A stretch of 64,000 nt of DNA, taken from Candidatus Pacebacteria bacterium CG10_big_fil_rev_8_21_14_0_10_44_54. Lineage in GTDB: Bacteria; Patescibacteriota; Microgenomatia; UBA1400; PJMF01. The stretch is from the NCBI GenBank assembly GCA_002772695.1, contig PFDI01000001.1:33253-97252 (forward strand). Direction: 5' to 3'. The notes under the pieces are model-generated. The model ran no database searches. It saw only the letters and a program-made list of their open reading frames with translations, and was not told where the DNA came from. A program made the translations under genes and the position numbers. This document shows, one piece after another, positions 15,599 to 42,748 of this stretch. The first letter of the stretch is position 1. Every line of letters begins with the position of its first letter.

Positions 15599-16759
15599 AT
15601 GAAATATACTAGACACTTAGAAGCAAATCTGCTTTCTCATTTTTCCAACTACAAACAAGCAATCGTACTGCTTGGAGCACGCCAAACAGGTAAGACAACG
15701 TTGCTCAGGCGGCTGTTTCCAGATGCGCTCTACATCCTACTCGACAACGAGCAAACAAAAAATGTTCTTGAAACATATGACATCTCAACCTATAAGCAAG
15801 CTATTGGTCGCACCAAACAACTCATTATTGACGAACTTCACCTATTACATGACCCTGGGAGGGCCGTTAAAATCATCTACGATCAGGTCCCTGGTTTGCA
15901 ACTTATTGTCACCGGCTCATCCGCACTCCACATAAAAAACAACTCGACAGAAAGTATGGCGGGTCGAAAAATCGAATACAACTTATTTCCACTCACTTTT
16001 TCTGAGTATCTTGTGCAAAAAAATATAGAGACCGTCCTTAATCACTCTGTACTGACCAATGTACTAGAACAAACAACTCCTCCCAAGCATCTGTTCTCCC
16101 CATCAGGACTGCTCGAGCAGGTTCTACTTTACGGTTTGTATCCTGATGTGCTCAACCTACCAGAACCTCGACAATATCTACTCAATTTGGCTGAAAGCGC
16201 TATTTTTAAAGATATAGTCGAGCTAAACCTCATCGACAATCGCAGTAAAGCAAAATCGCTCCTTGAGCTACTCGCGTATCAGATCGGCAATCTTTGCAAC
16301 TACTCAGAGATCGGCGCCAGATTATCTCTAGATAGACGAACAGTAGAGCGATACATAGACATTTTTGAACAAAGTTTTATTGTATTTCGCATCTTTCCTT
16401 ATGCAAACAACAAAAGAAACGAAATAGGAAAAACGCCAAAAATTTACTTTCATGATTTGGGCCTGCGTAATGCTCTGATCGATAACTATGACTCCATCAC
16501 AGTGCGGTCGGATGCAGGCGCGCTGTTTGAAAATTTTATAATTGCGGAACTCAAAAAAAACATTTCTTATCAACAAAGTGATTTCTCACTCAATTACTGG
16601 CGGACAAATAATGGTGCTGAGGTAGATATTGTTCTCAGTAATAACCACACAGTTATTGGCGCAGAAGTTAAAATGCAGAGTGGTTCAGTTTCTACAGCAT
16701 TTACCAATCGCTATCCTGATGCAAAGACGCACGTTATAACCAGACATACTTTTTATTAG
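15599..16759 (+). CDS. AAA-family ATPase with C-terminal DUF4143 domain (COG1373-like)
   Basis: Walker A LLGARQTGKTTLL. Walker B-like LIIDELHLL. C-terminal DUF4143-like region (SEIGARLSLDRRTVERYIDIFEQSFIVFRIFPYANN...). Confidence 0.65.
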   Translation: MKYTRHLEANLLSHFSNYKQAIVLLGARQTGKTTLLRRLFPDALYILLDNEQTKNVLETYDISTYKQAIGRTKQLIIDELHLLHDPGRAVKIIYDQVPGLQLIVTGSSALHIKNNSTESMAGRKIEYNLFPLTFSEYLVQKNIETVLNHSVLTNVLEQTTPPKHLFSPSGLLEQVLLYGLYPDVLNLPEPRQYLLNLAESAIFKDIVELNLIDNRSKAKSLLELLAYQIGNLCNYSEIGARLSLDRRTVERYIDIFEQSFIVFRIFPYANNKRNEIGKTPKIYFHDLGLRNALIDNYDSITVRSDAGALFENFIIAELKKNISYQQSDFSLNYWRTNNGAEVDIVLSNNHTVIGAEVKMQSGSVSTAFTNRYPDAKTHVITRHTFY

Positions 16760-16815: not shown

Positions 16816-18573
16816 ATGCTCAAGCGGATTCTCACCACCGCCGTTTTGTTTTCGATGGTTTTTTTACCGAATGTTATTTATGCACAACAAGGCGAGTCAG
16901 CATCGCTAGATTACGCCCAATTTAGCACCGAAGAATTTGCCGCCTACAAAGAAGCCACCGAAAATTGTGATAGCCCGTCCCTCGAGTGTTTGACCAAAAA
17001 CACCACCCGCTTCGTCGCTATGGAGTGGATCCATGATATTTTGGGCCAGCCGACAAAAGATCAAGCAACAAGTGAGGTGAGTGCTAACTCACCAACAGAA
17101 ATGCTTGTCAATTCAAACACCGGCCTCATGGGCGGCATGACCAAACTCATCGCCGGTATGTACTCCTACCCACCCGCTCGGACCAGCCGCTTTGTGGCAG
17201 ACGTCGCCCAATCTGCTGGCGTAACTCCAGCTTATGCCCAAGGGCTCGGCTTTGCCGCTCTTGATCCGGTGCTTGATCTTTGGAAGAAGTTTCGCAACCT
17301 TGCCTACTTCTTTTTTATAATCATGTTTCTTGTCATCGGCTTTATGATTATGTTTCGCTCCAAGGTGGGCGGCCAAGCGGCCATCACTGCCCAACAAGCG
17401 ATTCCCTCTATCCTCATTAGCCTGATTCTCGTCACTTTTTCGTATGCGATCTCGGGGTTTCTTATTGACCTCATGTACTTAAGCATGTACCTCATCGTAG
17501 GATTGTTTGGTGAGCTCACTACTGATAGCGGAGCCTCGTCAAGCCTCATTAGTATGAATATCTTTCAACTTGGTGGACAACTTCTCAAAGAATCGGCAGG
17601 AAATTTGGGACAAACGACTGACATTGTAAACCAGGTAATCGTAGGACTTATTGGTACCAGCAATGCAGTCACGGGCTTAGTATCAATCATCTCTGGTCTC
17701 ACTTTGTCACTTGTCTTGGCGGTCGCAATAGTGATCGCCCTGTTTCGACTCTTTTTTGAACTACTCAAATCGTACGCCAGTATCGTGGTTGGTGTCGTCA
17801 CCGCTCCTATCTACCTGATGATGGGAGCTATTCCTGGCAAAAATGCCTTTGCTGGCTGGATTAAAAGCATGATTGGCAATCTAGCTGCCTTCCCCACCGT
17901 ACTTCTGGTTGTCGTGCTTTTTTATGAGTTTACCCAAGCTGGCAGTGCCGGCTCGAGTGTGCGCTCTGGTGGCTTCTTGCCGCCGTTTCTAATTGGTGGT
18001 GGCCAGTCGAGTGTGGCGAGTGCACTGCTTGGCTTTGCCCTGCTCCTTGCGCTGCCAGAAGTGGTGAAGAAAATCAAAGAAGCACTGGGTGCCAAAGCTG
18101 GGTTGGGTGAACAGATTGCTGGGTGGGCGGGTGGTAGAATGAAGGATGCTTGGAGTGGTAAATATGGTGCAAAATCAATAATGAGAGAGGGTGCAAAACT
18201 GCCAGTTCGTGGTGTAGGTGCTTACTATGGAGCAAAATTGGGCTCAAACTTTGCCGAAAAAGCAGGGCTTACAGGATGGAAGAGAAATTTGGCGACTATA
18301 GCTGGATCAGGAGTTGGCTTTCAAGCGGCGCCGTCTGTCCCGGGTTTTGCTATTAACACTTTAAAATCTACTGGAAACCAAGTTCGGGATGCCTATATTA
18401 AAGAACAGCTCGAAGATGTTAAAACTGCAATTGATAAGACTATTCGCAGAAAAGATGCAGACGCATATCGGGATGCTGCAGTTAAATCTCAAGACAATAT
18501 CAAACACCCAGAGTCATCCCAAGCAAAACAGGGTGATGGTATATCTTCTAAGCAAAGATCTACGTTTAGTTAA
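16816..18573 (+). CDS. VirB6/TrbL-like polytopic membrane protein
   Basis: Signal peptide, an extracytoplasmic segment of about 150 aa, then 5 or more long hydrophobic helices and a hydrophilic Gly/Lys-rich C-terminal tail. Located inside the T4SS locus. Confidence 0.45.
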   Translation: MLKRILTTAVLFSMVFLPNVIYAQQGESASLDYAQFSTEEFAAYKEATENCDSPSLECLTKNTTRFVAMEWIHDILGQPTKDQATSEVSANSPTEMLVNSNTGLMGGMTKLIAGMYSYPPARTSRFVADVAQSAGVTPAYAQGLGFAALDPVLDLWKKFRNLAYFFFIIMFLVIGFMIMFRSKVGGQAAITAQQAIPSILISLILVTFSYAISGFLIDLMYLSMYLIVGLFGELTTDSGASSSLISMNIFQLGGQLLKESAGNLGQTTDIVNQVIVGLIGTSNAVTGLVSIISGLTLSLVLAVAIVIALFRLFFELLKSYASIVVGVVTAPIYLMMGAIPGKNAFAGWIKSMIGNLAAFPTVLLVVVLFYEFTQAGSAGSSVRSGGFLPPFLIGGGQSSVASALLGFALLLALPEVVKKIKEALGAKAGLGEQIAGWAGGRMKDAWSGKYGAKSIMREGAKLPVRGVGAYYGAKLGSNFAEKAGLTGWKRNLATIAGSGVGFQAAPSVPGFAINTLKSTGNQVRDAYIKEQLEDVKTAIDKTIRRKDADAYRDAAVKSQDNIKHPESSQAKQGDGISSKQRSTFS

Positions 18574-18833
18574 TAACCAACCGAGAACGGAACAAAATGA
18601 AACTTTCTTCTCTATTGAAAAAATTTTTTTTAGGAAATCTGAATAGAAAACCAGCTTTCAAAAATCTGAGACAGAATTTATCAAAAAAACCACAAGAACC
18701 AAAAAAAAGTAGGGATTATTTATCAATTGGCCTAGGCATTGGCAAAAAATACAGAGATTTGTTTCAAACAAATTGATACAAAACTACTTATAGTCGAAAA
18801 TTTGTGTGAGTGTGGCTAAATTTAATACAAAAT

Positions 18834-21800
18834 TTACTTAAAGATATTGGAAAAGTTAATCTGTTTTATTGTTCCGTCTACGATCGCTCTAACCCTTGAT
18901 GACTGTGAAAAACCTGCCTCTAATGCCTCGACTATAGCCTCTTGCTCTTCGTCAAAAAGAGTATTTTGTAATCCGTAAATCCATCTTTTTACCTCATTCA
19001 TCTCCTTGCCATTTCTCAGCTGTAAAATTGCGGAAGCGAAAGCAATTACATGAATCACTGCATCACGCACCTTGTCACCATTAAGAAAACCCGCCAAAAT
19101 CTCGGGGCCAAACTCAGGAAGAGTCGTTACAGCATATTTATCTTTTTTCTTTAATCCAGCAAGTTTTGATCTTGGAACACCTGAGACTGCAAAGGTTTCC
19201 TCTTCGGCTTTCAAAATTCCAGCGAGAAAATCATGAATATTTTTTGCATTATTGTAATAAGCTCTTATATCATCTTGCTGTGGCCTTAATGTAGAAAAAG
19301 GCATTAGTTCGTAATACAGCTCGCCATCCTCACCAACATAATCAGAAAAAGAAACCAGTTTACCTAAGTTGCCGTTCTCTTCAGGAGCGAACCTCTGGAA
19401 GCTCCCATCACCATTTCTTGACATAAAATACTTTAGGGGAGGTTGAAATATAGTAAATTTGCCTTGGTCATCTGGTTTAACGTCAATGAGTGGAAGCTCA
19501 ACAAGATACCAAAATCTATCATACAGCCCCTTCTCTATGAATCGTTCTTCGATTTTGCTTCTAACCTCTGAAGGATTGACTAGATTTGAAATAAATGTTT
19601 CTACAACACCTGACTTACCAACCACCTGCTCTGGAGCATCTAATGCATAATTTTTCTCTGCTCCCAACGCTCCAAAAAGCACTCTTGTTATAAAAGTGTT
19701 GTATCCATGAACTCCTTGTAGAATTTCTTTGTCAAGATAGTCTAACCAACGAAATGCATAAAAAATATTATCCGGAACAAACGAGCTACTCGGCGCCAAC
19801 CAAGCTTGATTCAGAAACAACACATGAAGCAAAAATGCTCGTTTAACGTGGTTCTCATTTATTCTGCTCTGGTATTTTTGATTAGTTCTTTCAGGAAGCG
19901 GGCTGCCTTTGCTTTTGGCAATTACAAGATCTTCTTCAAATTTGTTGTCCAATCTTCTTTGTTCTAATATCAACACCGTACGTCTAATTAAATCCATGTT
20001 GAAGTTCAGAGATTGTCCAGTTAGTCCAAACTCATCTTCATGATCTCCTCGATAAATTGCGTCTAAATGCCTCATAACTTGACCATACGCTGTCACGTTT
20101 ACTTCAACTTCTTTCGGGTTTCTGGTTTCCCAATCAGCCATCACAATCTTCCTCTTCTCCAGAACTGGATTTGTTTCAATTTCCTCTCGGTAAAGAACTT
20201 CTGCTGGTTTTCCCACCACACTAGTTGACCTTCTAATAAATTGTTCCGCTTGCTTTCCCTCAATCGCAAACAGATCGCTAAGAGCAAGGGGAAAGTCTTT
20301 AGGCACAACAGAATCGCCCGATCCCCAACCCATAATTCTTGAATTTACGCTTTGTTCTGTTAGATAAACCACCATTCTGAGACCTAAATCTGTTTTAAAC
20401 TCTTCAAAGTCGGCTACAAATTTAGCAGATTCATCTGGATGAATGGCTCCAACAATCCGACTAACTCTTGCAAAAATTCTCTGACCAAAAATAACATCCT
20501 TTACCTCATTTCCAACCAAGGCGACTGCGCCTTTATCATCACCCTCGTATGCGGTCATAGTATTGTTTGCGCACTCCTTTGTCTTTCGATAATCTGCTTT
20601 CAAAACTAATTGCTCAAGATCATTAATAGCGTTTTTGTCAAAACTCCTATCTCTTGCTTGGCGAATCGATTCGTACAAACTATCAAAAGTTTCCAAAGGA
20701 TTGTCTTCTTTTGTCATTAAGTACGGCGCCTCACTCTCAATTTGAGCAATCCTTAAAGATATATCGGAAACAAATTGCTCAAAATTCTCAATATTCTCAA
20801 GTGCCTTATTTCTTAGGTCTTTAAAAAGAGACTTTGCTCGCTCTATTTCAGCAGACAAAAGTGATGTTGTAGTGCTATCTTGTTTTACAAGAATGAGAAG
20901 TGTGTCAATTGCACTACCCAAGCTTTTCTCACGTTCAACAATACTTTGTTTGTCATAAACACCCACTCTCGCACTAAGAATCGCTTCTGCCTGAGCAGCT
21001 TCGCTTCTTAAAGAGATGATTTCATCTGATGCCTCCAAAATCGTTAAAATTTGGGCTTCTAGTTGAGATTTTGCAGTCAAGTATCCAGTTTTCCCTTTTA
21101 TATAAATTTCATTTAGGTGGTCAATTGCTTCAAGCCTATTTCTGACTGAACTAAAAAAACCATAGTCAAGATCTTCTAAATACCTTGAATAAAGTAGTCT
21201 TGCATCAACAAGTTTTTGCGTTAGATTTATTAATGAGTCAAGGTCGCCCACACTTTGCCCAGAAACTTGACTTAATACTTCAACACAAACTTTTTCTAAA
21301 TCTAAAGCAAAAACTGGGTGATCATCTTTTTTCCAGTTAGCTAAGTCAACGACTCCTACTAATTGAGACTCAATTTGAAACTTACTGTCTATTTCTTGAG
21401 CTACAGAGGAAATTGTTGTTCTAAGCTCAACCGAGACACGCTCATCATATTGAAAGTCTCTTATAGTTGCAAGAATTCTAGCAGCAGCTGAGATATCTTT
21501 TTCATCGATAGCAATCCTTATACTTCTTAGCCTGGATTCAATCAGAGTTTGCAATTGCTTTGGCTGCTCAAAATATTCGGACGCAACATTTCTTTGCTCC
21601 GATACTGCGCTTCCATCGCTAGAAACAAGATTTTTTTCTAAAAACTCTGCTATCAATAAATTTAGCAATCCCTCTTCCTCATAAAGTAGTTGTTCAGTTG
21701 TCCAAATCTCGTCCCCGTCCAGCTCTTGAAAAAATCCAAGAGATGCTGCGCCCGCAATTTCATTAAGCTTGTCAAGAATTACTCCTATTCTTTCTGCAAC

Positions 21801-22058
21801 TTGTTGCTGAATGGACTCAAGCAACTGGCCAATATCGCCCCCAGAAAGAAGTTTTTGTGCTGCTGCTGCTGCTGCAATATATATTCTCTTAGTTTCAGGA
21901 AAATCCGTGAGTCCCTCTACAATTTTCCGTTGTGTTGAGTGATCAGTTGTGAGTTGCAAAGAATTAACGGATGCCTCCAATCGCCGCACAGATTCTTCCA
22001 CCAGTTCTCTGCGATCATACTGTCGATGACCTAATACACCAACTTCATTAGTTTCCAT
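18834..22058 (-). CDS. Large (1074 aa) predicted cytoplasmic, alpha-helical/coiled-coil protein of unknown function, inside the T4SS locus
   Basis: Long uninterrupted ORF with no transmembrane segment and no P-loop. Contains an in-frame Ala6 run from a (GCT)6 repeat. Confidence 0.5.
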   Translation of the reverse strand: METNEVGVLGHRQYDRRELVEESVRRLEASVNSLQLTTDHSTQRKIVEGLTDFPETKRIYIAAAAAAQKLLSGGDIGQLLESIQQQVAERIGVILDKLNEIAGAASLGFFQELDGDEIWTTEQLLYEEEGLLNLLIAEFLEKNLVSSDGSAVSEQRNVASEYFEQPKQLQTLIESRLRSIRIAIDEKDISAAARILATIRDFQYDERVSVELRTTISSVAQEIDSKFQIESQLVGVVDLANWKKDDHPVFALDLEKVCVEVLSQVSGQSVGDLDSLINLTQKLVDARLLYSRYLEDLDYGFFSSVRNRLEAIDHLNEIYIKGKTGYLTAKSQLEAQILTILEASDEIISLRSEAAQAEAILSARVGVYDKQSIVEREKSLGSAIDTLLILVKQDSTTTSLLSAEIERAKSLFKDLRNKALENIENFEQFVSDISLRIAQIESEAPYLMTKEDNPLETFDSLYESIRQARDRSFDKNAINDLEQLVLKADYRKTKECANNTMTAYEGDDKGAVALVGNEVKDVIFGQRIFARVSRIVGAIHPDESAKFVADFEEFKTDLGLRMVVYLTEQSVNSRIMGWGSGDSVVPKDFPLALSDLFAIEGKQAEQFIRRSTSVVGKPAEVLYREEIETNPVLEKRKIVMADWETRNPKEVEVNVTAYGQVMRHLDAIYRGDHEDEFGLTGQSLNFNMDLIRRTVLILEQRRLDNKFEEDLVIAKSKGSPLPERTNQKYQSRINENHVKRAFLLHVLFLNQAWLAPSSSFVPDNIFYAFRWLDYLDKEILQGVHGYNTFITRVLFGALGAEKNYALDAPEQVVGKSGVVETFISNLVNPSEVRSKIEERFIEKGLYDRFWYLVELPLIDVKPDDQGKFTIFQPPLKYFMSRNGDGSFQRFAPEENGNLGKLVSFSDYVGEDGELYYELMPFSTLRPQQDDIRAYYNNAKNIHDFLAGILKAEEETFAVSGVPRSKLAGLKKKDKYAVTTLPEFGPEILAGFLNGDKVRDAVIHVIAFASAILQLRNGKEMNEVKRWIYGLQNTLFDEEQEAIVEALEAGFSQSSRVRAIVDGTIKQINFSNIFK

Positions 22059-22138
22059 ACCCCAAATTATACCCCAGCCAGACCAGGTGTATCAAGCGCC
22101 CAACCACCAACCACAACTGCAGGTATAATCACCCCCAC

Positions 22139-22534
22139 ATGACTTCGCAATCGACCAACACCACTGCTGACGACTGGATTGCTGCCACCGTCCTACGCGG
22201 CGACCAAACTGGCCGTACTATCAACTTCCCTAGCCTCAATCTAGACGCCGCCCTCTGGCCAAAGGCCCTACAGGCACAACCTGGTGTGTATGCTTCGCTC
22301 GTGCAGATTGCAGGCAGGCGGTACAAAGGCGCGCTCTACTACGGCCCAAGGTTAGTAAAAAAAGAAGTACACAACGTGCTTGAGATCCATGTTTTTGATT
22401 TTGCTGAGGAAATCTATGACCAGACAATCGAGTTTCAGATTGGTGCGTTTGTGCGACCACCCCTAGATTTTGACTCGCTCGATGGGCTCAAGCAGCAGTT
22501 GGCGGAGGATGTGGCGAGGGTTGTGGGCTTATAA
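22139..22534 (+). CDS. Monofunctional riboflavin kinase (RibF C-terminal-domain type)
   Basis: GRTINFPSLNL...PGVYASLVQIAGRRYKGALYYGPRLVKKEVHNVLEIHVFDFAEEIYDQTIEFQIGAFVRP matches the riboflavin kinase domain. Only 131 aa, with no FMN-adenylyltransferase domain. Confidence 0.7.
   Translation: MTSQSTNTTADDWIAATVLRGDQTGRTINFPSLNLDAALWPKALQAQPGVYASLVQIAGRRYKGALYYGPRLVKKEVHNVLEIHVFDFAEEIYDQTIEFQIGAFVRPPLDFDSLDGLKQQLAEDVARVVGL
22487..22520. repeat. Direct repeat copy 1 (34 bp) at the 3' end of the riboflavin kinase gene
   Basis: ctcaagcagcagttggcggaggatgtggcgaggg. It matches 23480-23513 at 31 of 34 positions. Confidence 0.8.
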
Positions 22535-23116
22535 CAAGTGGCGCCAATAATTACCCCTGTCGACCTGTTCAACAGTGCTTCCCGGATATGCGTTCAAGAA
22601 ATCTCGAGGTATTTTTGCAGTTCGTTTTGAACTCCACTTGAACTCAAAGCCTGAAAGCTTTCCGTCTCGTTCTTCAATATAATCTATTTCTTTTTGGTCA
22701 TATGTACGCCAGAAATAGCGATTGCTGAAAATTCTAGAGTGGTTAGCTTTTTTTAGAAACTCAACCACGCAAAAATTTTCCCACAGCACGCCCACATCAT
22801 TGCGCAGCGACAGTGGTGCAAATGCCTGCAAAAGTGCGTTTCTCGCCCCCACATCATAAAAGTAAATCTTCTGTGTTTTGCCGACTTCTTTCCGCAGATT
22901 GCGACTAAATCCGCTCAAAGTAAAAACGACAAACGCTTGCTCTAACACAGAGATATACGACTGTACAGTTCTTCTATCAATACCGATAATTGTTCCTAGC
23001 TCTGCGTATGAAACCTCATTGCCGACTTGCAACGCTAACAGTCGCAACAAATCAATTATCACTTTAGAGCGCTTAACACCCAGATACATCAGTGCGTCTT
23101 TGTAATTGTGACGCAA
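22529..23116 (-). pseudogene. Truncated DUF4143 paralog. It is C-terminal-domain only and lacks the AAA/P-loop half.
   Basis: LLRLLALQVGNEVSYAELGTIIGIDRRTVQSYISVLEQAFVVF...KIYFYDVGARNALL aligns with the C-terminal half of the 15599-16759 protein. No Walker A is present. Confidence 0.5.
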
Positions 23117-23119
23117 ATA

Positions 23120-23527
23120 TCAAATAAACCTCAATTGTAATTTTTTATCCATCGCAGATGCAAGCGAAAGCAGTGTGCTAATCGTCGGGTTATAACTGCC
23201 TGACTCAATCTTTGTAATTGTTGTTCTTGGCATAGCAGCTTTTTGCGCCAACTCCGCCTGGGTTAAGCCCAGCTGCTTTCTCAGATCGCGCAATTGCAAA
23301 AGCAAGTCATATCTATAGACCTCATTTGCAACGCGTTCTTCTTGAATTGGGGTAAAATGACCAAATACCTCCGCTAGCGAAATGGCACTCTTCTTTACGG
23401 TTTTCTTCACTAGTAAATTGTTCCTTAAAAAGAACATTTTGTCAAGAACGCGTAAATTGGTGTCTATAAACTTGCAGAACTCAAGCGGCAGTTGGCGGAG
23501 GATGTGGAGAAGGCTAAACCAACCCAA
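23120..23527 (-). CDS. XRE-family helix-turn-helix transcriptional regulator. True start is likely internal, near 23437.
   Basis: C-terminal HTH LRKQLGLTQAELAQKAAMPRTTITKIESGSYNPTISTLLSLASAM. Confidence 0.55.
   Translation of the reverse strand: MGWFSLLHILRQLPLEFCKFIDTNLRVLDKMFFLRNNLLVKKTVKKSAISLAEVFGHFTPIQEERVANEVYRYDLLLQLRDLRKQLGLTQAELAQKAAMPRTTITKIESGSYNPTISTLLSLASAMDKKLQLRFI
23480..23513. repeat. Direct repeat copy 2 (34 bp). It encodes a remnant riboflavin-kinase C-terminal peptide in the same frame as the downstream EamA gene.
   Basis: ctcaagcggcagttggcggaggatgtggagaagg. The frame reads ...ELKRQLAEDVEKAKPTQDKKTSHY-stop, parallel to the RibK end ...DGLKQQLAEDVARVVGL. Confidence 0.8.
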
Positions 23528-24502: not shown

Positions 24503-24602
24503 TTGCTCTGGATTTCTATCTCGATCGTGCCGTTTTTCGTCTGAGAAATGATTACTTTGGCGTGATCGAGCTTCAGGGCTCGACGCAGTGCAATGGGGTT
24601 TG

Positions 24603-24631
24603 CATTAGATTTTTATTTTCCCATTAGATTT
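24603..24631 (+). promoter_or_regulatory. Two direct 10-bp repeats CATTAGATTT, spaced 19 bp apart, upstream of the giant gene. A TATAAT -10 follows at 24661-24666.
   Basis: gCATTAGATTTttattttccCATTAGATTTcgc, then cacgTATAATcacaaggtATG. Confidence 0.3.
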
Positions 24632-24674
24632 CGCATTTCCTGTCATCCCCCACAACCACGTATAATCACAAGGT

Positions 24675-27600
24675 ATGGCGGATTCTGATAGAGATCAAAC
24701 TACCACAACAACGGGATCTGATTTAAAAGACCAAGCTCGACAAGCATTTGGCTCGATTTTTTCATCAGCAAACATCATTCCACTCGACAAGGTTAAGCGC
24801 CTTGGTGTGTATAGGCCAGAAGAACGACCGCAGCTGGCAGCTGTCTTTGATCGACTCACCAAATTTATAAATGCACAGTATCGCTTGATAGATAACCAAA
24901 AAATAATCATTAGGTTGCTCGATCAAGGCGCGGTAGAGTTAACTACCGAAGACCAGCGACAATACAGTGAAGTACCAGAAGCAGAGCGACGCACTCGCCT
25001 CTTTATGGCCGACCTCATTCAGCTTGCCAGTGACATCGGTAAAACACTCTGGAGCTGGGAACAAAGCGAACAATTGCGCGAATTTGGCGAGGTTGATGAG
25101 TGGTATTGGCTCAAAGAGCTCGGCGAAGAGGCTGGTACTAACCAGATTTCAAATTTTTTTGCTAAAGAAAAAATTGCCAAACTGCAACGCGAGCTCTTCG
25201 CTGATATTTGGCATGCATTCAAAGTCGGCGAACCAGAACCAACTGACGAACCAGCGGCAGCTGTCCCCGATGCTTCTGGCGCTACAGTCCCTGGCGAAAA
25301 ACTCGAAGCAATAACAGCTGCCTATGCTGCGAGTGGTAAGGGAGGAGATTCCGACGCTCAAACAGATACAAGCGAAACAGTGACGGCCAAAGAAAGAACT
25401 CCTGCAGAGGAGCTTGGTATTAGAGAGCGGCAAATAGAGCAACAAACCCTACTTATCAAACTACAACAAGAACTCTTTGAAAATATTGTTGGGGACCTAA
25501 CCACAAAAGAGATCGATCAGATGTGGAGTGATCTCGAACCTGGTTTGATCGCAGAAATTACTGATTTTTTTGCTACTCACCCCGAATTGCGAGAAAAGTT
25601 GGCTGTGGCATCGGCTGGTGACAGTCTAGTTCGAAGCGAAATTTATCAACAATTTTTACTTGCTTTACACACAAATGCAAATCTTATAAATAGGTTGACG
25701 CAAATGTATACAGCAGCCAGCGACCGAGCGGTGGTTGTCGGCCCTAATCGAGCTGTTGAACTAGAAAAAAGCCTCAAGCAAGCTGTAGATATTCTCGGAG
25801 AGAACCAAGTTTCGCGGATTATCTCTCATATTGAACAAACAGCGACAATTGCCCAAATCCCCAAGACAAAACCTGCTCCAATTACTACCGAAGCTTCGCC
25901 GCTTGACCAACAAGTATTGCTAGAACCCGAGAGCAAACTGCAGAAGTCTGCTTTTGAGTACCTCACTTCACACGCAGAGTACGAAATATTTCGCAAAACG
26001 CGCATTTTTTTGCACCAGCTTTCGCCAGAGCTTGATCTATCTGCCCAAAACATTCACACAGCGATTGCCGAATTTGCCCGACAAGAGACACTTAGCCTAA
26101 CCACCACCCAACTTCGTTTGGCCCAAGCAGATCCAGCATATCTCAGATCACTTTACGAGCGCTTTGCCAGCAACCTACAGAGACAATATCCAGAAATTAC
26201 CAATTTTCTCATCGACTATGGCTGGTTTATTTCTCAGACAAGCCCCGCTGAGGCAGCCCAGTTTGAACATATCTACCGCAATGGCATTTTGGGCAAAACA
26301 CTGTCTGCCAAAGATGCGCTCAAAACAGAGTTGCAAAATACCCTCAAGGGTGCTGCAACTGCCGTAGTCATCGAAAACACGATCACAACCATCGACGCGA
26401 TGATTCTTGAGTTTGGGGACAAGGCGCCAGAGTTTGTGGAGAGCATATCTATCGATCGACTTGAGCTCGCTTTTGGTCTAGCCAGCGGCACGCTGACAAG
26501 CGAAACAGCTCCGCTCTTTCTGACAACTTTGCGCGGTCAAATGCAGTTGCGTCTCACAGAACTGCGCATGGCTGGTAATCCAGAATTTTTGGCAGCTGGT
26601 GGTTTCCAGGGCGGCGTGCTACCAACCACACCAAAACAAACTGAGACTGTGTTGGCGGCAGTACCACTGTCAAGACAACTGCTAACCACCACACAATCAG
26701 ACACAGAAACAACAATAGCAGCCCTCGGTGCCCCGACGAAGCCTGTTGAAAAAAACCATGCTGCTTGGTGGAGTTCACTGCCCAAGGACGCACAGCTGCA
26801 AGTGTACGCGAAACTCATGGGTTCTGCAGCAGCTGGTGAGTATGCTGCGTTTAGCGCCGTGCCGTTCCCAGATAAATTGTCTGCCTTGAGCAATACTGAG
26901 ATTCGCAAAATGTTGGTTGGAATTTGGTCTGAGTCTCCCCAATTAACGCCAGATCAAACAGCACAATTTCAAACAATTGATCGTGAGCTTGAAACACTCG
27001 ATCGCCTCGTCATTGCACAAGTCAAAACAGCTGAGCTACACAAACAAGTTGTGGCGGCAATCATGCAAGACATCAAGGATGAACAAGCAGCAATAATTGC
27101 TGCTCAACTTGGTCTGCAGGTTGCAGAAAAGGCTTCGGCTCAAGCAACAATTATCGCAGCGGTCAATTCTGGCCAAGCTCCGATTCCAGCTCAAAATCTG
27201 GTAACCATGAATGAAGCACTGGTGCAAGGCGGCTCAAATGCTTTAGTAGGTGCTGATCCGTATGCTAGCAATTTTGCGCAACAATTTGCTGGTCGAGCTG
27301 GTTCGCTTGCGAGCTCGCTGCGATCTGCAGCTATGGAAAAACTCAAAAAAAAGTTGGCAGGCAATCTTTTGAAAGGAGCTGCTACGAAAGCAGGGCTGGC
27401 TGCAACCGGTGTTGGCCTGCCTGCTGCAGCAATTCTCACGCTGCTACAGAATAAAACAGCAAGAAAAATTGTGCTTGGTGGTGGAGCTCTGCTTGTTGCA
27501 AAAACACTATATTCATTGACGACATATGGTGGAGCTCTCGGAGCCATAGCTGGGGGGCTTATTGGAGGACCGATTGGCGCACTGATTGGAGCAAATGTTG

Positions 27601-29021
27601 GGGCAATGATTCCTGGCCTTGGAGGTCAATGGACTGGCCTAATGGGCTGGACTCCCCATGCTCCCACTTCACCATTCTCTACTTCTGGCAGCACCGCCGG
27701 AAGCTTGTCGTCATCGGGTACTAGTTCGCTTCGAGCGCTCAGATCAGAGGGCGCTGCAAACTCAAGCACTGCCGCGCATTCCGTCTCGAGTACTGGAGGA
27801 GAGTCGTTTTCTGCCGCCAACCAAACTGCAACAGCGGCGACACCGGCTTCGGGTAGCACTTTTGTCCAAGGCGACCCAACGGCCGCCACAACCGCAGCAG
27901 GCTCCTCGTCTCTTACTGGATTACTTGGTGCTACTACCGCCACAGTTGTTGCCACCGCTGCCCCTCTTCTCGGTATTGGAGTTGGCTTATTTTTATCAAT
28001 TCAAGTTTTGTTTATAATTTACGGCGCATTTTTGGTTGATGTGCCATCGGAGGGTCTGGGTGGTCCAACTGCAGAACTTTCAAAGTATGCCACACTCACC
28101 AAAAAAGCTAATCCCAATACGCTTCCCATTAATATTCCAAGCGAGGTAACATATACAGTTGAATTTGCCCCGAAAAGCAAATACCGTCTGCAGATCACTC
28201 GGGTTGAAGATGTTTTCTCATATCAGGGCTGTGATAAGACTCAAGCTAATAGTTGCGACCTTAGCCTTGAATCACCTCTCGAACTTGGATCGTTTCCCAC
28301 CGAATCTATAACTAGCCCTGCAGAGGTAGGCTATTCGGTCACAATAAATGGTAGTGATGTTATGGTCATCAATTCACTCACTATCACCTTTGATGTGTAT
28401 GATTCTGCGGGCACCAAGCTTGCCACCAATGAAAGTATTACGGCGCTAGAGTCAGTTGTTGTCGGCAATCCACAGGTGGGTTGCTTTGTGCCTGGAGAGT
28501 CGGGGGAGGCGTTTATAACTAATTTCGGAACAATCTATTCTATGTCGTGGAACGACAAAAACTCTGCTAGTGACTTTAACAAAATTTTATCTGCTTATAG
28601 CAATACTGTTGGAGCCAACGAACAATTTACCAACTTGCTTTGCGCCAAAGGGCCTATCACTCTTTATAGACTTGATAAAAACCCCAATAACTACTATGGC
28701 TGGGCCATGGGATATAGCAAAATTGGTTTTTACGCAGATACGTTTAACAATGTAGTTGGTACCGAATACACACTTGTTCACGAACTAGGACACATCATTG
28801 ATTATCGCAACGCAGGGCTGCGCGCTTCTTTTACCACACTACTTCCCAGAAATCTCTATGCCTGTTTTGATTATCCTGGAAGCACTTGTTCGGATGGTGA
28901 GGCATTTCCCGAAGCTATTGCTCGCTATGCTACAAATTATAAAAACTACAACTTAAAACAAAAACACCCCAAAGTACACACTTGGCTTAAAAATAACATC
29001 TTTGGGGGTATAGAATATTAA
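24675..29021 (+). CDS. Giant (1448 aa) membrane protein. It has a long coiled-coil N-terminal region, glycine-zipper transmembrane segments, a Ser/Thr/Ala-rich linker, and a C-terminal domain with a HExxH zincin motif.
   Basis: Transmembrane/Gly-zipper segments GLAATGVGLPAAAILTLL...GGALGAIAGGLIGGPIGALIGANVGAMIPGLGG and APLLGIGVGLFLSIQVLFIIYGAFLV. C-terminal YTLVHELGHIIDYRN, with downstream acidic residues (GEAFPEAIARY). Confidence 0.5.
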   Translation: MADSDRDQTTTTTGSDLKDQARQAFGSIFSSANIIPLDKVKRLGVYRPEERPQLAAVFDRLTKFINAQYRLIDNQKIIIRLLDQGAVELTTEDQRQYSEVPEAERRTRLFMADLIQLASDIGKTLWSWEQSEQLREFGEVDEWYWLKELGEEAGTNQISNFFAKEKIAKLQRELFADIWHAFKVGEPEPTDEPAAAVPDASGATVPGEKLEAITAAYAASGKGGDSDAQTDTSETVTAKERTPAEELGIRERQIEQQTLLIKLQQELFENIVGDLTTKEIDQMWSDLEPGLIAEITDFFATHPELREKLAVASAGDSLVRSEIYQQFLLALHTNANLINRLTQMYTAASDRAVVVGPNRAVELEKSLKQAVDILGENQVSRIISHIEQTATIAQIPKTKPAPITTEASPLDQQVLLEPESKLQKSAFEYLTSHAEYEIFRKTRIFLHQLSPELDLSAQNIHTAIAEFARQETLSLTTTQLRLAQADPAYLRSLYERFASNLQRQYPEITNFLIDYGWFISQTSPAEAAQFEHIYRNGILGKTLSAKDALKTELQNTLKGAATAVVIENTITTIDAMILEFGDKAPEFVESISIDRLELAFGLASGTLTSETAPLFLTTLRGQMQLRLTELRMAGNPEFLAAGGFQGGVLPTTPKQTETVLAAVPLSRQLLTTTQSDTETTIAALGAPTKPVEKNHAAWWSSLPKDAQLQVYAKLMGSAAAGEYAAFSAVPFPDKLSALSNTEIRKMLVGIWSESPQLTPDQTAQFQTIDRELETLDRLVIAQVKTAELHKQVVAAIMQDIKDEQAAIIAAQLGLQVAEKASAQATIIAAVNSGQAPIPAQNLVTMNEALVQGGSNALVGADPYASNFAQQFAGRAGSLASSLRSAAMEKLKKKLAGNLLKGAATKAGLAATGVGLPAAAILTLLQNKTARKIVLGGGALLVAKTLYSLTTYGGALGAIAGGLIGGPIGALIGANVGAMIPGLGGQWTGLMGWTPHAPTSPFSTSGSTAGSLSSSGTSSLRALRSEGAANSSTAAHSVSSTGGESFSAANQTATAATPASGSTFVQGDPTAATTAAGSSSLTGLLGATTATVVATAAPLLGIGVGLFLSIQVLFIIYGAFLVDVPSEGLGGPTAELSKYATLTKKANPNTLPINIPSEVTYTVEFAPKSKYRLQITRVEDVFSYQGCDKTQANSCDLSLESPLELGSFPTESITSPAEVGYSVTINGSDVMVINSLTITFDVYDSAGTKLATNESITALESVVVGNPQVGCFVPGESGEAFITNFGTIYSMSWNDKNSASDFNKILSAYSNTVGANEQFTNLLCAKGPITLYRLDKNPNNYYGWAMGYSKIGFYADTFNNVVGTEYTLVHELGHIIDYRNAGLRASFTTLLPRNLYACFDYPGSTCSDGEAFPEAIARYATNYKNYNLKQKHPKVHTWLKNNIFGGIEY

Positions 29022-30884: not shown

Positions 30885-31916
30885 ATGCCCGATACAATTA
30901 CCACCACCCAATCGTTTTTGGATATTTACGACATCACCAACGACCTACTGTTGATGAAAGACGGCACTACTTCACTAGTGATGATCGTCGACGCGATGAA
31001 CTTTGGCCTGCTTGCAGAATCAGAACAGGACGCCATTATGTATGCCTACGCGGGCCTGCTCAACTCAATCAATTATCCCATTCAAATTGTTATCAACTCG
31101 CGCACCAAAGATGTAACAACCTATCTACATTTACTCGAGCAGCAAGAGTCTGAAACTGCTTCGCCCATTATGCAGGGTCGCATTCGTGCATATCGAGAGT
31201 TTGTTGGCAATCTCATCCACGATCGCAATGTGCTCGACAAAAAGTTTTATGTCGTCATCCCCGCCACTCCGCTAGAGCTCGGTATGATCGCGCCCTCAAG
31301 CGTTCTGCCTGGTAAACAATCGCCGGGGATCGAAAGTATGGAGAGATCTGTTATCATTGAAAAAGCGGTAAACCTGCTTGAGCCAAAACGAGATCATCTT
31401 GCAGCACAGTTTGCGCGAATCGGCCTTTTTTCTCGCCAACTGACTACGCAAGAAATTATCCAATTGTTTTATATCAAGTACAACCCAGAGGCTGCCGAAG
31501 GGCAGCACATCGCTGAAAGTAGTAGTTATAGCGCGCCGCTAGTACACGCGCGCATTCAAGGAGAACATATGGATGCTCCAACACCAACCAACCCAACACC
31601 CACGGCCGTGCCGGAACCAACTGCGACGCCAGTGACTCCGCAGCCAGCTGCTGCAGAACCCACTCCACCAACACCTGTGGCTCAACCTACTTCGCCCACT
31701 CCGCCAGAGCCAGCTGCTGCTACAGCACCTGCTGTATCGCCTGCCCCAACTGCCACAGACGAGAGCGCAATACAAGCAGATCTCAACGCAAGTGTTCAAT
31801 CTATGGGACAGGCGCCAATCACACCAATTCCGCCAGGAGGACCAGCGGCAACAACACCAACTACTCCTGATACTGCGGTTCAACCAGCAACACCCGCGCA
31901 ACTGCCAGAGATTTAG
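30885..31916 (+). CDS. VirB4/TrbE N-terminal domain ORF, ending in a Pro/Thr/Ala-rich low-complexity tail (first part of a split VirB4)
   Basis: FLDIYDITNDLLLMKDGTTSLVMIVDAMNFGLLAESEQDAIMYAYAGLLNSINYPIQIVINS matches the VirB4/PrgJ N-terminal region. The tail is PTPTNPTPTAVPEPTATPVTPQPAAAEPTPPTP... Confidence 0.55.
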   Translation: MPDTITTTQSFLDIYDITNDLLLMKDGTTSLVMIVDAMNFGLLAESEQDAIMYAYAGLLNSINYPIQIVINSRTKDVTTYLHLLEQQESETASPIMQGRIRAYREFVGNLIHDRNVLDKKFYVVIPATPLELGMIAPSSVLPGKQSPGIESMERSVIIEKAVNLLEPKRDHLAAQFARIGLFSRQLTTQEIIQLFYIKYNPEAAEGQHIAESSSYSAPLVHARIQGEHMDAPTPTNPTPTAVPEPTATPVTPQPAAAEPTPPTPVAQPTSPTPPEPAAATAPAVSPAPTATDESAIQADLNASVQSMGQAPITPIPPGGPAATTPTTPDTAVQPATPAQLPEI

Positions 31917-31986: not shown

Positions 31987-33909
31987 ATGCCCAGTCTAAG
32001 CTCGCTCCTACCATTTGCAAAAAAACCAAAAGAAGCAGATCGCTCTTTGCAAGATAACGCGGCGGCTCGCTCGCTCGAAAAAATTCAAGAATTTTCTCGA
32101 GGTCTAGTGACGATTCAAGATATTATTGCACCCGAGGCTATTGAAGTAGATTTTACCTACCAAAAAATTAATTCTACATACACCCGCACCCTATTTGTGG
32201 CCGGTTATCCCCGCAGTGTTCCAGCAAACTGGCTTGGTCCGCTCATCAATTTTCCCCATCAAATGCACGTCTCTATGTTTATTTTTCCAGTTGATTCTGG
32301 AGAAGTGCTCGACAACCTTAAACGCAAAATTACCGAGATGGAAGCAGAAATTCAATCTGACTTACGAGCGGGCAAAATCAGTAACATCAATACCGAGGTA
32401 AAGCTCGAGGACGCTCGCTTTATTCGCGAAGAGCTCGCCAAAGGTTCGGAGCGGTTTTTTCAATTTGGCTTATATGTCACTGTCACCGCCCAATCACTCG
32501 AAGAGCTGAACCGAGTCACCAAGAGTATTCAATCCTCACTTGGTTCATTGCTTATCGTCTCAAAAAATGCCACTCTCCAAATGGATGAGGGATTCAAAAC
32601 CACACTACCAATGGGTGTTGATAAGCTGCTTGTAACTCGCAATATGGATACCACCTCGCTTGCGACAACCTTTCCTTTTACCTCGTCTGAACTCACGATG
32701 GAGAGCGGCATAATGTATGGGATCAATGAACACAACGACTCGCTTGTCATTTTTGATCGATTTGAAATGGAAAATGCCAATATGATTATTTTTGCCAAAT
32801 CTGGTGCTGGCAAGTCCTACACAGTCAAACTCGAAATTTTGCGTCAACTTATGTTTGGAATTGATGTCATCGTGCTCGACCCAGAGCATGAGTATGAAGA
32901 ATTATCCAAAGCAGTTGGTGGTGAGTACCTCAATTTCACCTTTAGTTCAAAAGCGCGCATCAACCCCTTTGATCTCTCCAATATTTATGAAGAGGGAGAA
33001 AATGAGCTAGGACAAAAAATTATCTCACTCCACGGTTTGCTCAAAGTCATGCTCGGCGAGATGACGCCACAACAAGACGCGCTACTCGATCGAGCGCTTG
33101 TGGCAGCTTACAAAGCCAAAGGAATTACTCCTGATCCTGCCACTCAAACACTCGAGCCACCCCTCATGGAGGATGTATATAAGGCACTCATTGGCATGGA
33201 AAATGAGGATGCCAATAACATTGCTGCACGCCTCGAAAAGTTTATCACCGGCTCATTCCGCGGCATTTTTGATCAACCTTCCAATTTTAATATTACTAAT
33301 CAACTCACTGTTTTTTCGGTCAAAGAAATGGAGGAGGGTCTGCGACCAATTGCTATGTACATAATACTCGACTATATCTGGACAAAAGTAAAGAAAAATC
33401 TCAAAAAGCGAATTTTGGTTATTGATGAAGCCTGGTACTTCATGACAAGCAAAGACTCGGCCTCATTTATTTACTCAATGGTAAAACGAGCCCGCAAGTA
33501 CTACCTTGGTATAACCACTATTACGCAAGATGTTGAAGACTTCGTTTCTAACGACTACGGCAAGGCTATTATCTCTAATGCCTCTATTCAGTTTTTGATG
33601 AAACAATCAACCGCCTCTATTCCTGTTCTGGCCGAAACTTTCTACCTTTCTCAGGGAGAAAGACAACTCCTCATCACCGCCGACATTGGTGAAGGTATCT
33701 TTTTTGCTGGACAAAATCACGTTGCGCTTCGTGTGGTGGCCTCGCCAGAAGAGCACGGGATTATTACTACCAATCCGGAAGAGATTCTTAGAAAAAACAA
33801 ACAACGCACGCTTGTTGCTTCCCAAGAAGCAACCAATCAAAATAAATCGCCAGTTACACAAGAAAGTCTGTCGAGTAGTATTGATGACTATTCCCCGCCC
33901 CCAAACTAA
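31987..33909 (+). CDS. VirB4/TrbE/CagE-family T4SS ATPase (central and C-terminal ATPase domains)
   Basis: Walker A IFAKSGAGKSYTV. Walker B LVIDEAWYF. Upstream CagE/TrbE-type region (YTRTLFVAGYPRSVPANWLGPL). Confidence 0.8.
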   Translation: MPSLSSLLPFAKKPKEADRSLQDNAAARSLEKIQEFSRGLVTIQDIIAPEAIEVDFTYQKINSTYTRTLFVAGYPRSVPANWLGPLINFPHQMHVSMFIFPVDSGEVLDNLKRKITEMEAEIQSDLRAGKISNINTEVKLEDARFIREELAKGSERFFQFGLYVTVTAQSLEELNRVTKSIQSSLGSLLIVSKNATLQMDEGFKTTLPMGVDKLLVTRNMDTTSLATTFPFTSSELTMESGIMYGINEHNDSLVIFDRFEMENANMIIFAKSGAGKSYTVKLEILRQLMFGIDVIVLDPEHEYEELSKAVGGEYLNFTFSSKARINPFDLSNIYEEGENELGQKIISLHGLLKVMLGEMTPQQDALLDRALVAAYKAKGITPDPATQTLEPPLMEDVYKALIGMENEDANNIAARLEKFITGSFRGIFDQPSNFNITNQLTVFSVKEMEEGLRPIAMYIILDYIWTKVKKNLKKRILVIDEAWYFMTSKDSASFIYSMVKRARKYYLGITTITQDVEDFVSNDYGKAIISNASIQFLMKQSTASIPVLAETFYLSQGERQLLITADIGEGIFFAGQNHVALRVVASPEEHGIITTNPEEILRKNKQRTLVASQEATNQNKSPVTQESLSSSIDDYSPPPN

Positions 33910-35711: not shown

Positions 35712-36815
35712 ATGAAGTTTTTAGTTTCCAAAACAACATTTCACACAACACTACAAAAGTTGCAGCGAGTACTTCCAAATAAACCACAACTACCTACTTT
35801 GGCTGCAATTCATATTTTGGTAAAAAAAAATCGAGTAATACTTACAGCCACAGACCTGTATCTAGGTATTCAAGCGCCACTTGAATCTCAGATTGAATCA
35901 GAGGGAGTGGTTGTAGTGCCGGGTAAGTTACTTCTAGCTGCCGTCAGTTCGTTTCCGGAAGGCGAGATTGTGGTAACAGAAACAGCCGGAACACTAAACC
36001 TAGTGTCTCGCGCAAGTAAGGTGAAGTTGCAAACCCTCTCACTCGAAGAATATCCAGAATTTCCCGAGGTAAGCGGAGAAAGTGTTTTGCTTGCCACAAG
36101 TGATTTACTTTCTGTTGAACAGTATGTACTACCAAGTGTTTCAAAAGACATTACTAGACCAGTGCTCACGGCGGTACAACTCGAATTGACAACAACTACT
36201 TTTCGCGCCGTTGGTACAGATGGTTTTCGTTTATCTGTGTTTGGTACAACCACCGAGTCAGAACACGCAAAGACACTACTAGCCCCCGCCCGTACACTCC
36301 TTGAATATATTAAACTTGCCCAGGCAGAGGAAGTATCCAATGTAGAGCTGCTCGTTTCGAGTAAGCTACAACAAGTATTGGCAAAAATTGGCGACGTATT
36401 GGTATTTTCTCGACTTGTTACGGGGGAGTATCCACCATTCGAACAGATTATTCCCAGTGAAAGTACGACAGAAGTTGTTTGTGAAGCCGATGAGTTGCTC
36501 GAGCAGGTGCGACGAGCACACGTGTTAACCAGCGGTTCTTCACATATAGTGCAGTTTCGTATTTCACCTGAATTAGTTGAGATTTCTACCCCGACGACAA
36601 CAGAGGGCTCGTTTGAAGGAGTGTTAACCTCAGCAAAAGTGACAGGAAATCCATTGAAAATAGCCTTTAATGCTGTGTATTTACTTGATATGTTAAAACA
36701 ATTTTCATCACAAGAATTGCGTCTTGGTATGACTGAGGCACTAAAACCAGTGATTTTTCGCTCTCAAACGCTTTCATCGTTTCTCTACGTCGTTATGCCA
36801 TTTCGAGTGGTATAA
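35712..36815 (+). CDS. dnaN: DNA polymerase III beta sliding clamp
   Basis: 367 aa with a three-domain clamp-like sequence. Canonical position after dnaA. Confidence 0.8.
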
Positions 36816-41980: not shown

Positions 41981-42013
41981 ATGTAAGGCTCTACACTTGG
42001 TGTAAGAAAGTAG

Positions 42014-42022
42014 TGATATAAT
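42014..42022 (+). promoter_or_regulatory. Extended -10 promoter TGaTATAAT upstream of rplY
   Basis: agtgatataat is located about 30 nt upstream of ATG 42053. Confidence 0.4.
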
Positions 42023-42052
42023 GCGCCAGGACCCTCCGTTAAGCAAAAAATT

Positions 42053-42742: not shown

Positions 42743-42748
42743 GTTTTT

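Follow-up and report, generated by a model that had tools for sequence, protein, structure and literature searches.

In a 64,000-nucleotide (nt) stretch of contig PFDI01000001.1 from Candidatus Pacebacteria bacterium CG10_big_fil_rev_8_21_14_0_10_44_54, hereafter the window, the first gene of a conserved, co-directional five-gene operon of a type IV secretion system (T4SS) encodes a protein of 1448 amino acids (aa). It is followed by genes for a small bitopic partner, a PrgI/VirB3-like protein, a TrsD-like protein and the ATPase VirB4. We consider it probable that this large protein is a membrane subunit of the secretion system with an exchangeable, envelope-cutting head, and that the small protein encoded next to it is the cognate partner of that head. 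While a T4SS locus adjoining dnaA was already known, apparently new are a zincin family of at least 151 clusters without a Pfam model, the swapping of heads among close relatives after a fixed junction, and a partner ectodomain that co-varies with the head. A preliminary description of the window had pointed to this open reading frame (ORF), which is indeed present on the plus strand from ATG to stop, and had proposed a membrane-integrated metallopeptidase or a T4SS subunit with proteolytic processing activity. Nearly all of the features it claimed for the ORF are real, and a membrane-integrated metallopeptidase that is also a T4SS subunit is supported by remote homology, by the conserved third-ligand Glu and by operon context, whereas a processing activity is not favoured in view of the M23, CHAP and C39-like replacements described below. 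The architecture, which it called unusual, is not a one-off but defines a large family, in which a long soluble N-terminus is followed by a membrane cluster, a last membrane segment, the stalk and the head.

Heads are exchanged at the same operon position. One orthologue (P0003) is 41% identical to the window protein over the first ~1270 residues and then carries a Peptidase_M23 domain instead of the HExxH domain. Related loci were collected in a metagenome scan with a VirB4 alignment, which gave 80 loci, 40 of them examined and chosen for several kilobases (kb) of upstream DNA; the sample is biased towards VirB4 proteins 63-93% identical to that of the window, and a search with a narrower alignment (A2) gave six genomes only. 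The operon order is the same in about 35 of the 40 loci. Head types at this position total 37 loci: a lethal-factor-like head as in the window in 10 (without a Pfam match above threshold), M23 in 20 (Pfam E 1e-11 to 2e-17 in five scanned proteins, the rest by motif), a Peptidase_C39_2-like cysteine peptidase in six (Pfam, sub-threshold) and CHAP in one (Pfam E 1e-6, over the cut-off). The switch always falls after a conserved G-x-P-x-x-G-C motif (G-x-P-x-x-G-C-W before M23 heads), in which, across 142 family domains, G1264 is conserved at 96%, P1266 at 87% and C1270 at 99%. Such exchanges separate close relatives: the heads of the window and of L001 differ although their VirB4, TrsD and DnaA proteins are 92%, 84% and 83% identical, and a neighbour-joining tree of VirB4, which carries no support values, scatters the lethal-factor-like loci over at least five separate places among the M23 loci. 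The lethal-factor-like domain is, moreover, found in tandem fusions, where it follows an M23 (P0116) or GDSL/SGNH hydrolase domain (P0106) or precedes a NAGPA phosphodiester glycosidase (P0067, just under the cut-off) or a weak SLT match (P0151). The common denominator of the head types and the tandem modules is cell-envelope degradation, and it is because M23, CHAP and C39-like heads replace the head, and because of its fusions to envelope hydrolases, that the head is most likely an envelope-cutting tool. As a separate observation, nearly all M23-headed variants (L013, L014, L015, L021, L026, L028 and others) have a conserved Cys near the C-terminus (TCFN, SCYE, TCYE). This residue may pair with the junction Cys of G-x-P-x-x-G-C-W, just as C1270 may with C1323 in lethal-factor-like heads.

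The gene directly downstream, whose start codon lies one base past the stop codon of the large gene, changes together with the head. Partner type follows head type without exception in the 37 loci, with partners of 189-210 aa next to lethal-factor-like heads (10/10), 316-356 aa next to M23 heads (20/20), 136-142 aa next to C39-like heads (6/6) and 210 aa next to the CHAP head (one locus). Partners of the lethal-factor-like and M23 types are homologous only in their anchor (residues 1-67), and profile-profile comparison finds the ectodomains unrelated between types. The window partner had been described as VirB8-like; the N-terminal membrane anchor and the ectodomain are there, but homology to VirB8 is not detectable, and the protein has no match in Pfam, in NCBIfam or, by profile search, among PDB sequences. 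Among nine lethal-factor-like sequences, head and partner-ectodomain identity have a VirB4-controlled partial r of 0.70 (0.32 for PrgI and 0.46 for TrsD), a correlation beyond VirB4 divergence that is suggestive only. The large protein and its partner are the fastest-evolving members of the operon, with identities of 42-56% and 23-59% versus 92% for VirB4. The conservation of VirB4 is itself unusual when the window is compared with L001 and L003, DnaA being 82-83% and DnaN 71-72% identical.

Placing the head in a family took domain-wise and profile searches, as whole-protein searches of Pfam, NCBIfam and PDB sequences gave no match and a full-length homologue search returned just three proteins. 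Few full-length relatives can be detected because the N-terminal 880 residues evolve very fast. A profile was run exhaustively against 1.84 billion representative proteins (clusters at 50% identity). The head family so obtained comprises 399 clusters at E<=1e-3, of which 151 pass E<=1e-10 and 53 pass E<=1e-30, and in nearly all of them the head is the extreme C-terminus of a protein of 750-1670 aa. Across the 142 family domains, whose identities are 25-45%, H1369, E1370, H1373, Y1400 and E1409 are 100% conserved, E1413 99%, F1411 98% and C1323 98%. The HExxH motif reads HELGH in the window (residues 1369-1373, nt 28779-28793), Y1400 lies at nt 28872-28874, and the downstream acidic cluster of the preliminary description corresponds to E1409-A-F-P-E1413 (nt 28899-28913), which supplies an invariant Glu 40 residues after HExxH in the position of a third zinc ligand; the check for such a ligand that the preliminary description had proposed thus came out positive. 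Refutation had been tied to a loss of HExxH among orthologues or to a non-peptidase fold; the motif is conserved in the orthologues and the predicted fold is of peptidase type.

A remote-homology search, which the preliminary description had suggested, led to the zincin group of anthrax lethal factor and the Pro-Pro endopeptidases. A profile of 35 family sequences, 25-43% identical to the head domain of the window, matched the catalytic domain of lethal factor (E 3e-4) and PPEP-1/Zmp1 (E 5e-3) among PDB sequences. The alignment is in register: HExxH pairs with HEFGH of lethal factor, and the invariant Tyr and E-A-F-x-E with its Tyr and EFFAE. The lethal factor residues aligned to Y1400 and E1409 are presumably Y728 and E735. 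PPEP-1 and lethal factor also took the top ranks in Foldseek, as weak matches to a structure model of moderate confidence built from a shallow alignment, and the model thus points to a fold shared with the M34 group. The head thus belongs to a distant sister family of the M34-type gluzincins (MEROPS), outside the curated ATLF family (PF07737) because the threshold of that family is missed. The window head domain itself has no Pfam match even at E<=10, and we found no literature linking lethal factor, Pro-Pro endopeptidase or ATLF domains to Patescibacteria.

The remainder of the protein suggests how such a head could be presented (coordinates are given in Table 1). Hydropathy places the first hydrophobic segment only at about residue 905, and there is no signal peptide. 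The soluble region before this point diverges so fast that its sub-regions N1, N2 or N4 each detect only 4-12 of 153-186 family proteins; its best-conserved module has a degenerate internal copy at aa 253-406, and residues 415-650 are predicted to form an all-helical bundle rather than a long coil, whereas the preliminary description had spoken of a coiled-coil N-terminal region. The glycine-zipper string GGLIGGPIGALIGANVGAMIPGLGG quoted in the preliminary description does lie inside the hydrophobic cluster, and the matching membrane regions of relatives give Gly-zipper_Omp matches below threshold. The S/T/A-rich linker was likewise found (residues 1000-1085 are 26% S, 19% A, 15% T and 13% G), and so was the further transmembrane segment after it, which could be either one long helix or a helical hairpin and brings the total to about four or five segments by hydropathy. 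Identity to orthologues is 38-40% in the linker (aa 985-1079) and 78-80% in the segment that follows. The C-terminal ~330 aa had been taken as one domain containing HExxH; the motif stands, but these ~325 aa divide into a beta-rich stalk (1125-1268) and the HExxH domain proper (1271-1448). The stalk, which is probably extracellular, was detected by phmmer in 79 of 153 family proteins and is also present in M23-headed variants. It has no Pfam match, strands at its end appear in the predicted structure, and a search with a 22-sequence stalk profile, aimed at further head types, returned nothing.

Orientation across the membrane is suggested by composition. All six Cys lie in the last 263 residues, with none before residue 1186 (aa 1-1185, nt 24675-28229), and across the family the Cys content is 0.08% in N-terminal regions and 1.48% in the C-terminal 330 aa. 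The flank before the first membrane segment of the window protein is rich in Lys and Arg and net positive and the flank after the last segment is acidic, a pattern for which 77 family proteins speak, versus 22 against. M23 and CHAP enzymes act on extracytoplasmic substrates. We thus infer an N-in/C-out topology with a cytoplasmic N-terminal region, because there is no signal peptide and because flank charges, Cys distribution and alternative heads that act outside the membrane all point the same way.

In the mechanism that we favour, the ~880-aa helical N-terminus would remain in the cytoplasm, the membrane anchor would consist of the glycine-rich helix cluster and of a second, hydrophobic hairpin, and the cytoplasmic body with the glycine-zipper membrane region would be part of, or attached to, the VirB3/TrsD/VirB4 core. 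Outside the cell, the beta-rich stalk would position a 180-aa zinc metallopeptidase, a gluzincin of the anthrax-lethal-factor or Pro-Pro-endopeptidase type in which H1369 and H1373 would bind zinc with E1409 as third ligand, E1370 would act as general base and Y1400 would stabilise the transition state. By analogy, this head would most likely be the functional counterpart of VirB1, PrgK or TraG (pIP501), cleaving peptide bonds in the cell wall or in a wall-associated protein and thereby letting the secretion channel or pilus cross the producer's own wall, the wall of the host, or both. Candidate targets include the producer's own wall during assembly, the host wall at the contact site and surface proteins. 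The partner ectodomain could serve as the cognate docking, regulatory, inhibitory or immunity protein of the head. Maturation of a substrate or of a pilin is not favoured, because the head is interchangeable with M23, CHAP and C39-like modules. The body may also supply a VirB6-like scaffold; no VirB6 similarity was found in its sequence.

Several points weigh against this reading. No member of the head family exceeds the Pfam threshold for ATLF: four of the 35 sequences match at all, with a best E of 0.015. To our knowledge, the characterised members of the lethal-factor and Pro-Pro-endopeptidase group all cleave proteins and none cleaves peptidoglycan, and a peptidoglycan substrate would thus be new for the fold, because the characterised relatives cut only proteins. 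The C39-like assignment is sub-threshold (E 1e-3). The proposed topology is drawn from hydropathy, charge bias and Cys distribution, and a QNKTARK loop between the first two hydrophobic segments misfits a simple topology model. Co-variation of head and partner fits an inhibitor or immunity role of the partner as well as a structural one. Finally, the window encodes a second very large, secreted protein of 1435 aa (9482-13789, plus strand), in which a signal peptide at the N-terminus is accompanied by matches to Glyco_hydro_cc and, at the C-terminus, to an SLT lytic transglycosylase domain. This protein could equally be the wall hydrolase of the system, or it could be another envelope-degrading factor of the organism; it is not a paralogue of the 1448-aa protein, since the two are not significantly similar and only the 1435-aa protein carries a signal peptide.

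The alternative that survives best, though we regard it as rather unlikely, is that the protein is an effector akin to polymorphic toxins (CdiA-CT/CdiI, Rhs, LXG). Its C-terminal enzyme would attack the envelope of the host, as a contact-dependent weapon or a feeding tool possibly released at the G-x-P-x-x-G-C junction, and the downstream membrane-anchored protein would confer immunity. The hallmark of such toxins (a conserved body, a fixed junction, a variable C-terminal enzyme and a co-varying next gene) is matched across the 37 loci, and the rate of change fits as well, with at least five swaps, heads that differ despite 92% identical VirB4 proteins, and a large protein and partner that evolve fastest in their operon. 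However, the window protein has several membrane segments, is not evidently secreted, carries no secretion or trafficking domain recognisable in Pfam or NCBIfam, and offers nothing that points to release of the head. It is encoded once per locus in a housekeeping-like operon adjoining dnaA, and no orphan head or immunity arrays were seen in the flanks examined. All partners, moreover, retain a homologous membrane anchor, which suits a fixed place in the machine. Self-protection against the M23 bacteriocins lysostaphin and zoocin A is known to work through modification of the wall and is not known to involve an inhibitor protein, which also speaks against an effector with a dedicated immunity partner. 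In its chemistry this alternative overlaps with the reading we favour, and the two differ mainly in target (the host only) and in the role of the partner. The lifestyle of these bacteria would suit an effector, since Patescibacteria are obligate epibionts whose T4SS has no assigned function (PMC11665869).

A more far-reaching version of the envelope-cutting subunit, which we think unlikely as it stands, would make head and partner a host-range cassette matched to the surface chemistry of the prey. The lethal-factor-like type would then serve for proteinaceous envelopes instead of peptidoglycan (S-layers, sheaths and wall-anchored proteins, including those of archaeal hosts), the partner would be a self-protecting inhibitor, and head type would predict host type across Patescibacteria.

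It is very unlikely that the head, instead of cutting the envelope, is a maturation protease for another component or a substrate of the T4SS, for example VirB2-like pilins or secreted proteins. Lethal factor and the Pro-Pro endopeptidases (M34), the characterised relatives of the fold, are sequence-specific protein endopeptidases, and C39 peptidases, of which a likeness occurs at the same position, classically remove leader peptides. Patescibacteria T4SS loci also often encode arrays of VirB2-like pilins (PMC12102498). Against this, the commonest alternative heads, M23 and CHAP, are peptidoglycan enzymes, the tandem fusions involve M23, SGNH, NAGPA and SLT modules, and Pfam and NCBIfam identified no pilin gene in the five-gene operon; a dedicated processing enzyme would also not be expected to be swapped for chemically unrelated ones between near-identical machines. 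Least probable of all is a purely structural protein, a divergent VirB6-type channel or scaffold with an inactive HExxH domain for binding or adhesion: operon position, several membrane helices and large hydrophilic extensions do recall the 'extended VirB6' proteins (PMC12857230), and several Patescibacteria classes reportedly have few or no detectable VirB6 homologues (PMC12102498), but five catalytic or ligand residues invariant in 142 highly diverged sequences are unexpected in a degenerate module, neither the full-length proteins nor five membrane regions taken separately give a TrbL/VirB6/PrgH signal, and a scaffold role of the body would be compatible with the envelope-cutting reading, only the inactive domain being a true rival.

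How the protein relates to known systems can be stated for each of its parts. With M34/ATLF, the group of lethal factor, PPEP-1/Zmp1, PPEP-2 and PPEP-3, the head shares the gluzincin core of HExxH, Tyr and a Glu in an E-x-F-A-E helix ~40-50 residues downstream, and probably an extracellular site of action. Unlike the M34 proteins, which are soluble secreted toxins or proteases, the window head is tethered to a polytopic T4SS protein in a family of 750-1670 aa; identity is only 14-19%, and the two nearly invariant Cys (1270 and 1323) and the N-terminal sub-domain are not shared. The substrate probably differs from those of the M34 relatives.

The wall hydrolases of other T4SS, namely PrgK (pCF10), TraG (pIP501), TrsG (pGO1), TcpG (pCW3), CwlT (ICEBs1) and, in diderms, VirB1, are enzymes, either anchored in the membrane or secreted, whose genes accompany that of VirB4 and which make an opening in the wall for the machine. 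M23, CHAP and SLT modules are building blocks of such hydrolases in Gram-positive systems, as in PrgK and TraG of pIP501. The modules of these two proteins include types seen here as alternative heads (LytM/M23, CHAP, SLT; PMC12102498), and the operon belongs to the same MPF-FATA lineage with the order TrsC/PrgI, TrsD, TrsE(VirB4). In contrast to them, the window protein has no SLT, CHAP, NlpC/P60, M23/LytM or lysozyme-type domain by Pfam and NCBIfam, its enzyme is joined in one chain to a body that is very large, cytoplasmic and polytopic, head and partner gene are swapped jointly among close relatives, and a zincin head has never been reported in this role. The link would hence be one of functional analogy by module replacement and not of membership. 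Extended VirB6 proteins (F-plasmid TraG, Rickettsia RvhB6, TcpH, ConG) are likewise polytopic T4SS proteins with large hydrophilic domains, and the window protein could be a candidate for the missing VirB6 of several classes (PMC12102498, PMC12857230). It nevertheless shows no detectable similarity to them and appears to have fewer membrane segments, of glycine-zipper type, and a catalytic-type head. Membership of the VirB6/TrbL/PrgH families was rejected, as neither the full-length protein, seven orthologous large proteins nor five membrane regions gave any Pfam or NCBIfam match.

The operon is of the T4SS locus type published for Patescibacteria, which is MPF-FATA-like, lacks a relaxase and often adjoins dnaA, and near whose virB4 gene homologues of VirB1 and VirB6 are rare in most classes (Quinonero-Coronel et al. 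2025, PMC12102498). In Saccharibacteria, a T4SS cluster of different arrangement is indispensable to growth as an epibiont (Wang et al. 2023, PMC10633639). The window shares with these the VirB4, TrsD and PrgI/VirB3 homologues beside dnaA and dnaN, and no relaxase domain was found among the neighbour proteins scanned, a subset of the window ORFs. In the portions of the text and supplements of PMC12102498 and PMC10633639 that were searched, the large protein, its lethal-factor-like head, head swapping and a co-varying partner are not described, and the searched supplements of PMC12102498 contain no mention of M23, CHAP or ATLF. Gene neighbours named in the preliminary description were found as claimed: an EamA gene upstream, a PrgI-like protein whose score barely clears the cut-off, and VirB4 (E 3e-112 against NCBIfam conju_CD1110). 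It had further suggested looking for orthologues next to VirB4, and these, distant ones included, always sit in an operon that ends with VirB4. The same gene order is found in L001, L003, L004 and L005, the same operon lies beside dnaA/dnaN for two orthologues (P0002, P0003) and two distant family members (P0075, P0022), and the genomes with related loci are Patescibacteria or Paceibacterota. Orthologues of the TrsD-like protein carry the TraC-like domain PF26593.

Two further observations concern this region. The PrgI/VirB3-like protein is long and has a C-terminal, sub-threshold match to CarboxypepD_reg, a beta-sandwich (24.7 bits), and may thus have an extracellular domain as well. Near 42 kb the GC skew reverses its sign (cumulative minimum, ~42000-43000), ~6 kb past dnaN, where genes of the plus and minus strands converge; if this switch marks the origin, the T4SS operon, dnaA and dnaN are transcribed toward it.

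Table 1. Coordinates in the window of the large protein, its parts, its upstream region and the neighbouring genes.
Feature	Position	Strand	Basis or remark
Conserved upstream control region	24600..24674	+	repeats, TATAAT, cross-genome alignment
Whole ORF, 1448 aa, first operon gene	24675..29021	+	ATG 24675, stop 29021
N-terminal soluble region, ~880 aa, helical, Cys-free, fast-evolving	24675..27314	+	hydropathy, Cys count
Best-conserved N-terminal module, aa 419-650, all-alpha bundle	25929..26624	+	
Hydrophobic cluster with glycine-zipper stretch, about three membrane segments, aa 905-981	27387..27617	+	hydropathy
Ser/Thr/Ala/Gly-rich low-complexity linker, aa 985-1079	27627..27911	+	composition
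44-residue hydrophobic stretch, aa 1080-1123, then acidic flank	27912..28043	+	hydropathy
Beta-rich stalk, aa 1125-1268, motifs S-K-Y...K-x-A-x-P...T-Y-T, Cys pair 1186/1194	28047..28478	+	
Junction motif G-N-P-Q-V-G-C, aa 1264-1270	28464..28484	+	conservation in 142 family domains
Lethal-factor / Pro-Pro-endopeptidase-like zinc metallopeptidase head (predicted), aa 1271-1448	28485..29018	+	profile, fold, conservation
Bitopic partner, 189 aa, anchor aa 14-38, ectodomain ~150 aa	29023..29592	+	
PrgI/VirB3-like membrane protein, 403 aa	29622..30833	+	PrgI 27.2 bits vs cut-off 27
TrsD/TraC-like protein, resembles VirB4 N-terminal part	30885..31916	+	weak NCBIfam VirB4_plasma (positions 112-235) and TrsD matches
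VirB4-family ATPase	31987..33909	+	Pfam, NCBIfam
dnaA	33932-35458		directly after VirB4 gene
dnaN	35712-36815		after dnaA

The DNA immediately upstream of the operon is far better conserved than the protein it precedes. About 75 nt are nearly invariant in four genomes, those of the window, L003 (1393-1467), L012 (2766-2840) and L001 (9926-10000), where the proteins are only 42-56% identical. Two direct repeats of CATTAGATTT had been noted there and are exact (24603-24612 and 24622-24631, 19 nt apart), with no further exact copies elsewhere in the window; the block also contains ATTTCGCATTTCC and ACCACGTATAATCACAAGGTATG. The -10 box, also noted earlier, is a TATAAT at 24661-24666, and its end lies only 8 nt from the ATG, which suggests that the transcript has a very short leader or none. 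A simple sigma-70 scan of the upstream region gave no canonical -35/-10 pair despite the conserved TATAAT. The block as a whole suggests a putative conserved regulator-binding site.

Further upstream, GC content falls to 0.39 at 18000-22100, versus about 0.45-0.47 in most neighbouring 2-kb segments. This stretch holds a 1074-aa ORF (18834-22058, minus strand) without a Pfam or NCBIfam match. On one side of it lies an intact AAA_14/DUF4143 ATPase gene (15599-16759), on the other a truncated, DUF4143-only copy (22529-23116) adjoining a helix-turn-helix (HTH) gene (23120-23527). The corresponding region of L001 has toxin-antitoxin-like genes instead, and the stretch may be an inserted or variable island.

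For the biology of these bacteria, our analysis suggests that the large protein encoded first in the operon could plausibly fill the missing role of a VirB1-type hydrolase. It also extends the lethal-factor and Pro-Pro-endopeptidase group by a large family that is not yet curated and that occurs in a biological setting new to the group. In the only species tested, epibiotic growth cannot do without the T4SS (PMC10633639), whose function has been called 'completely unknown' (PMC11665869). What would be the outward tip of the machine is a cassette that changes, with a matching partner, between near-identical machines, as would be expected of the part that meets the host. Because such rapid exchange is expected of a host-meeting part, head and partner could offer testable targets for studies of host specificity.

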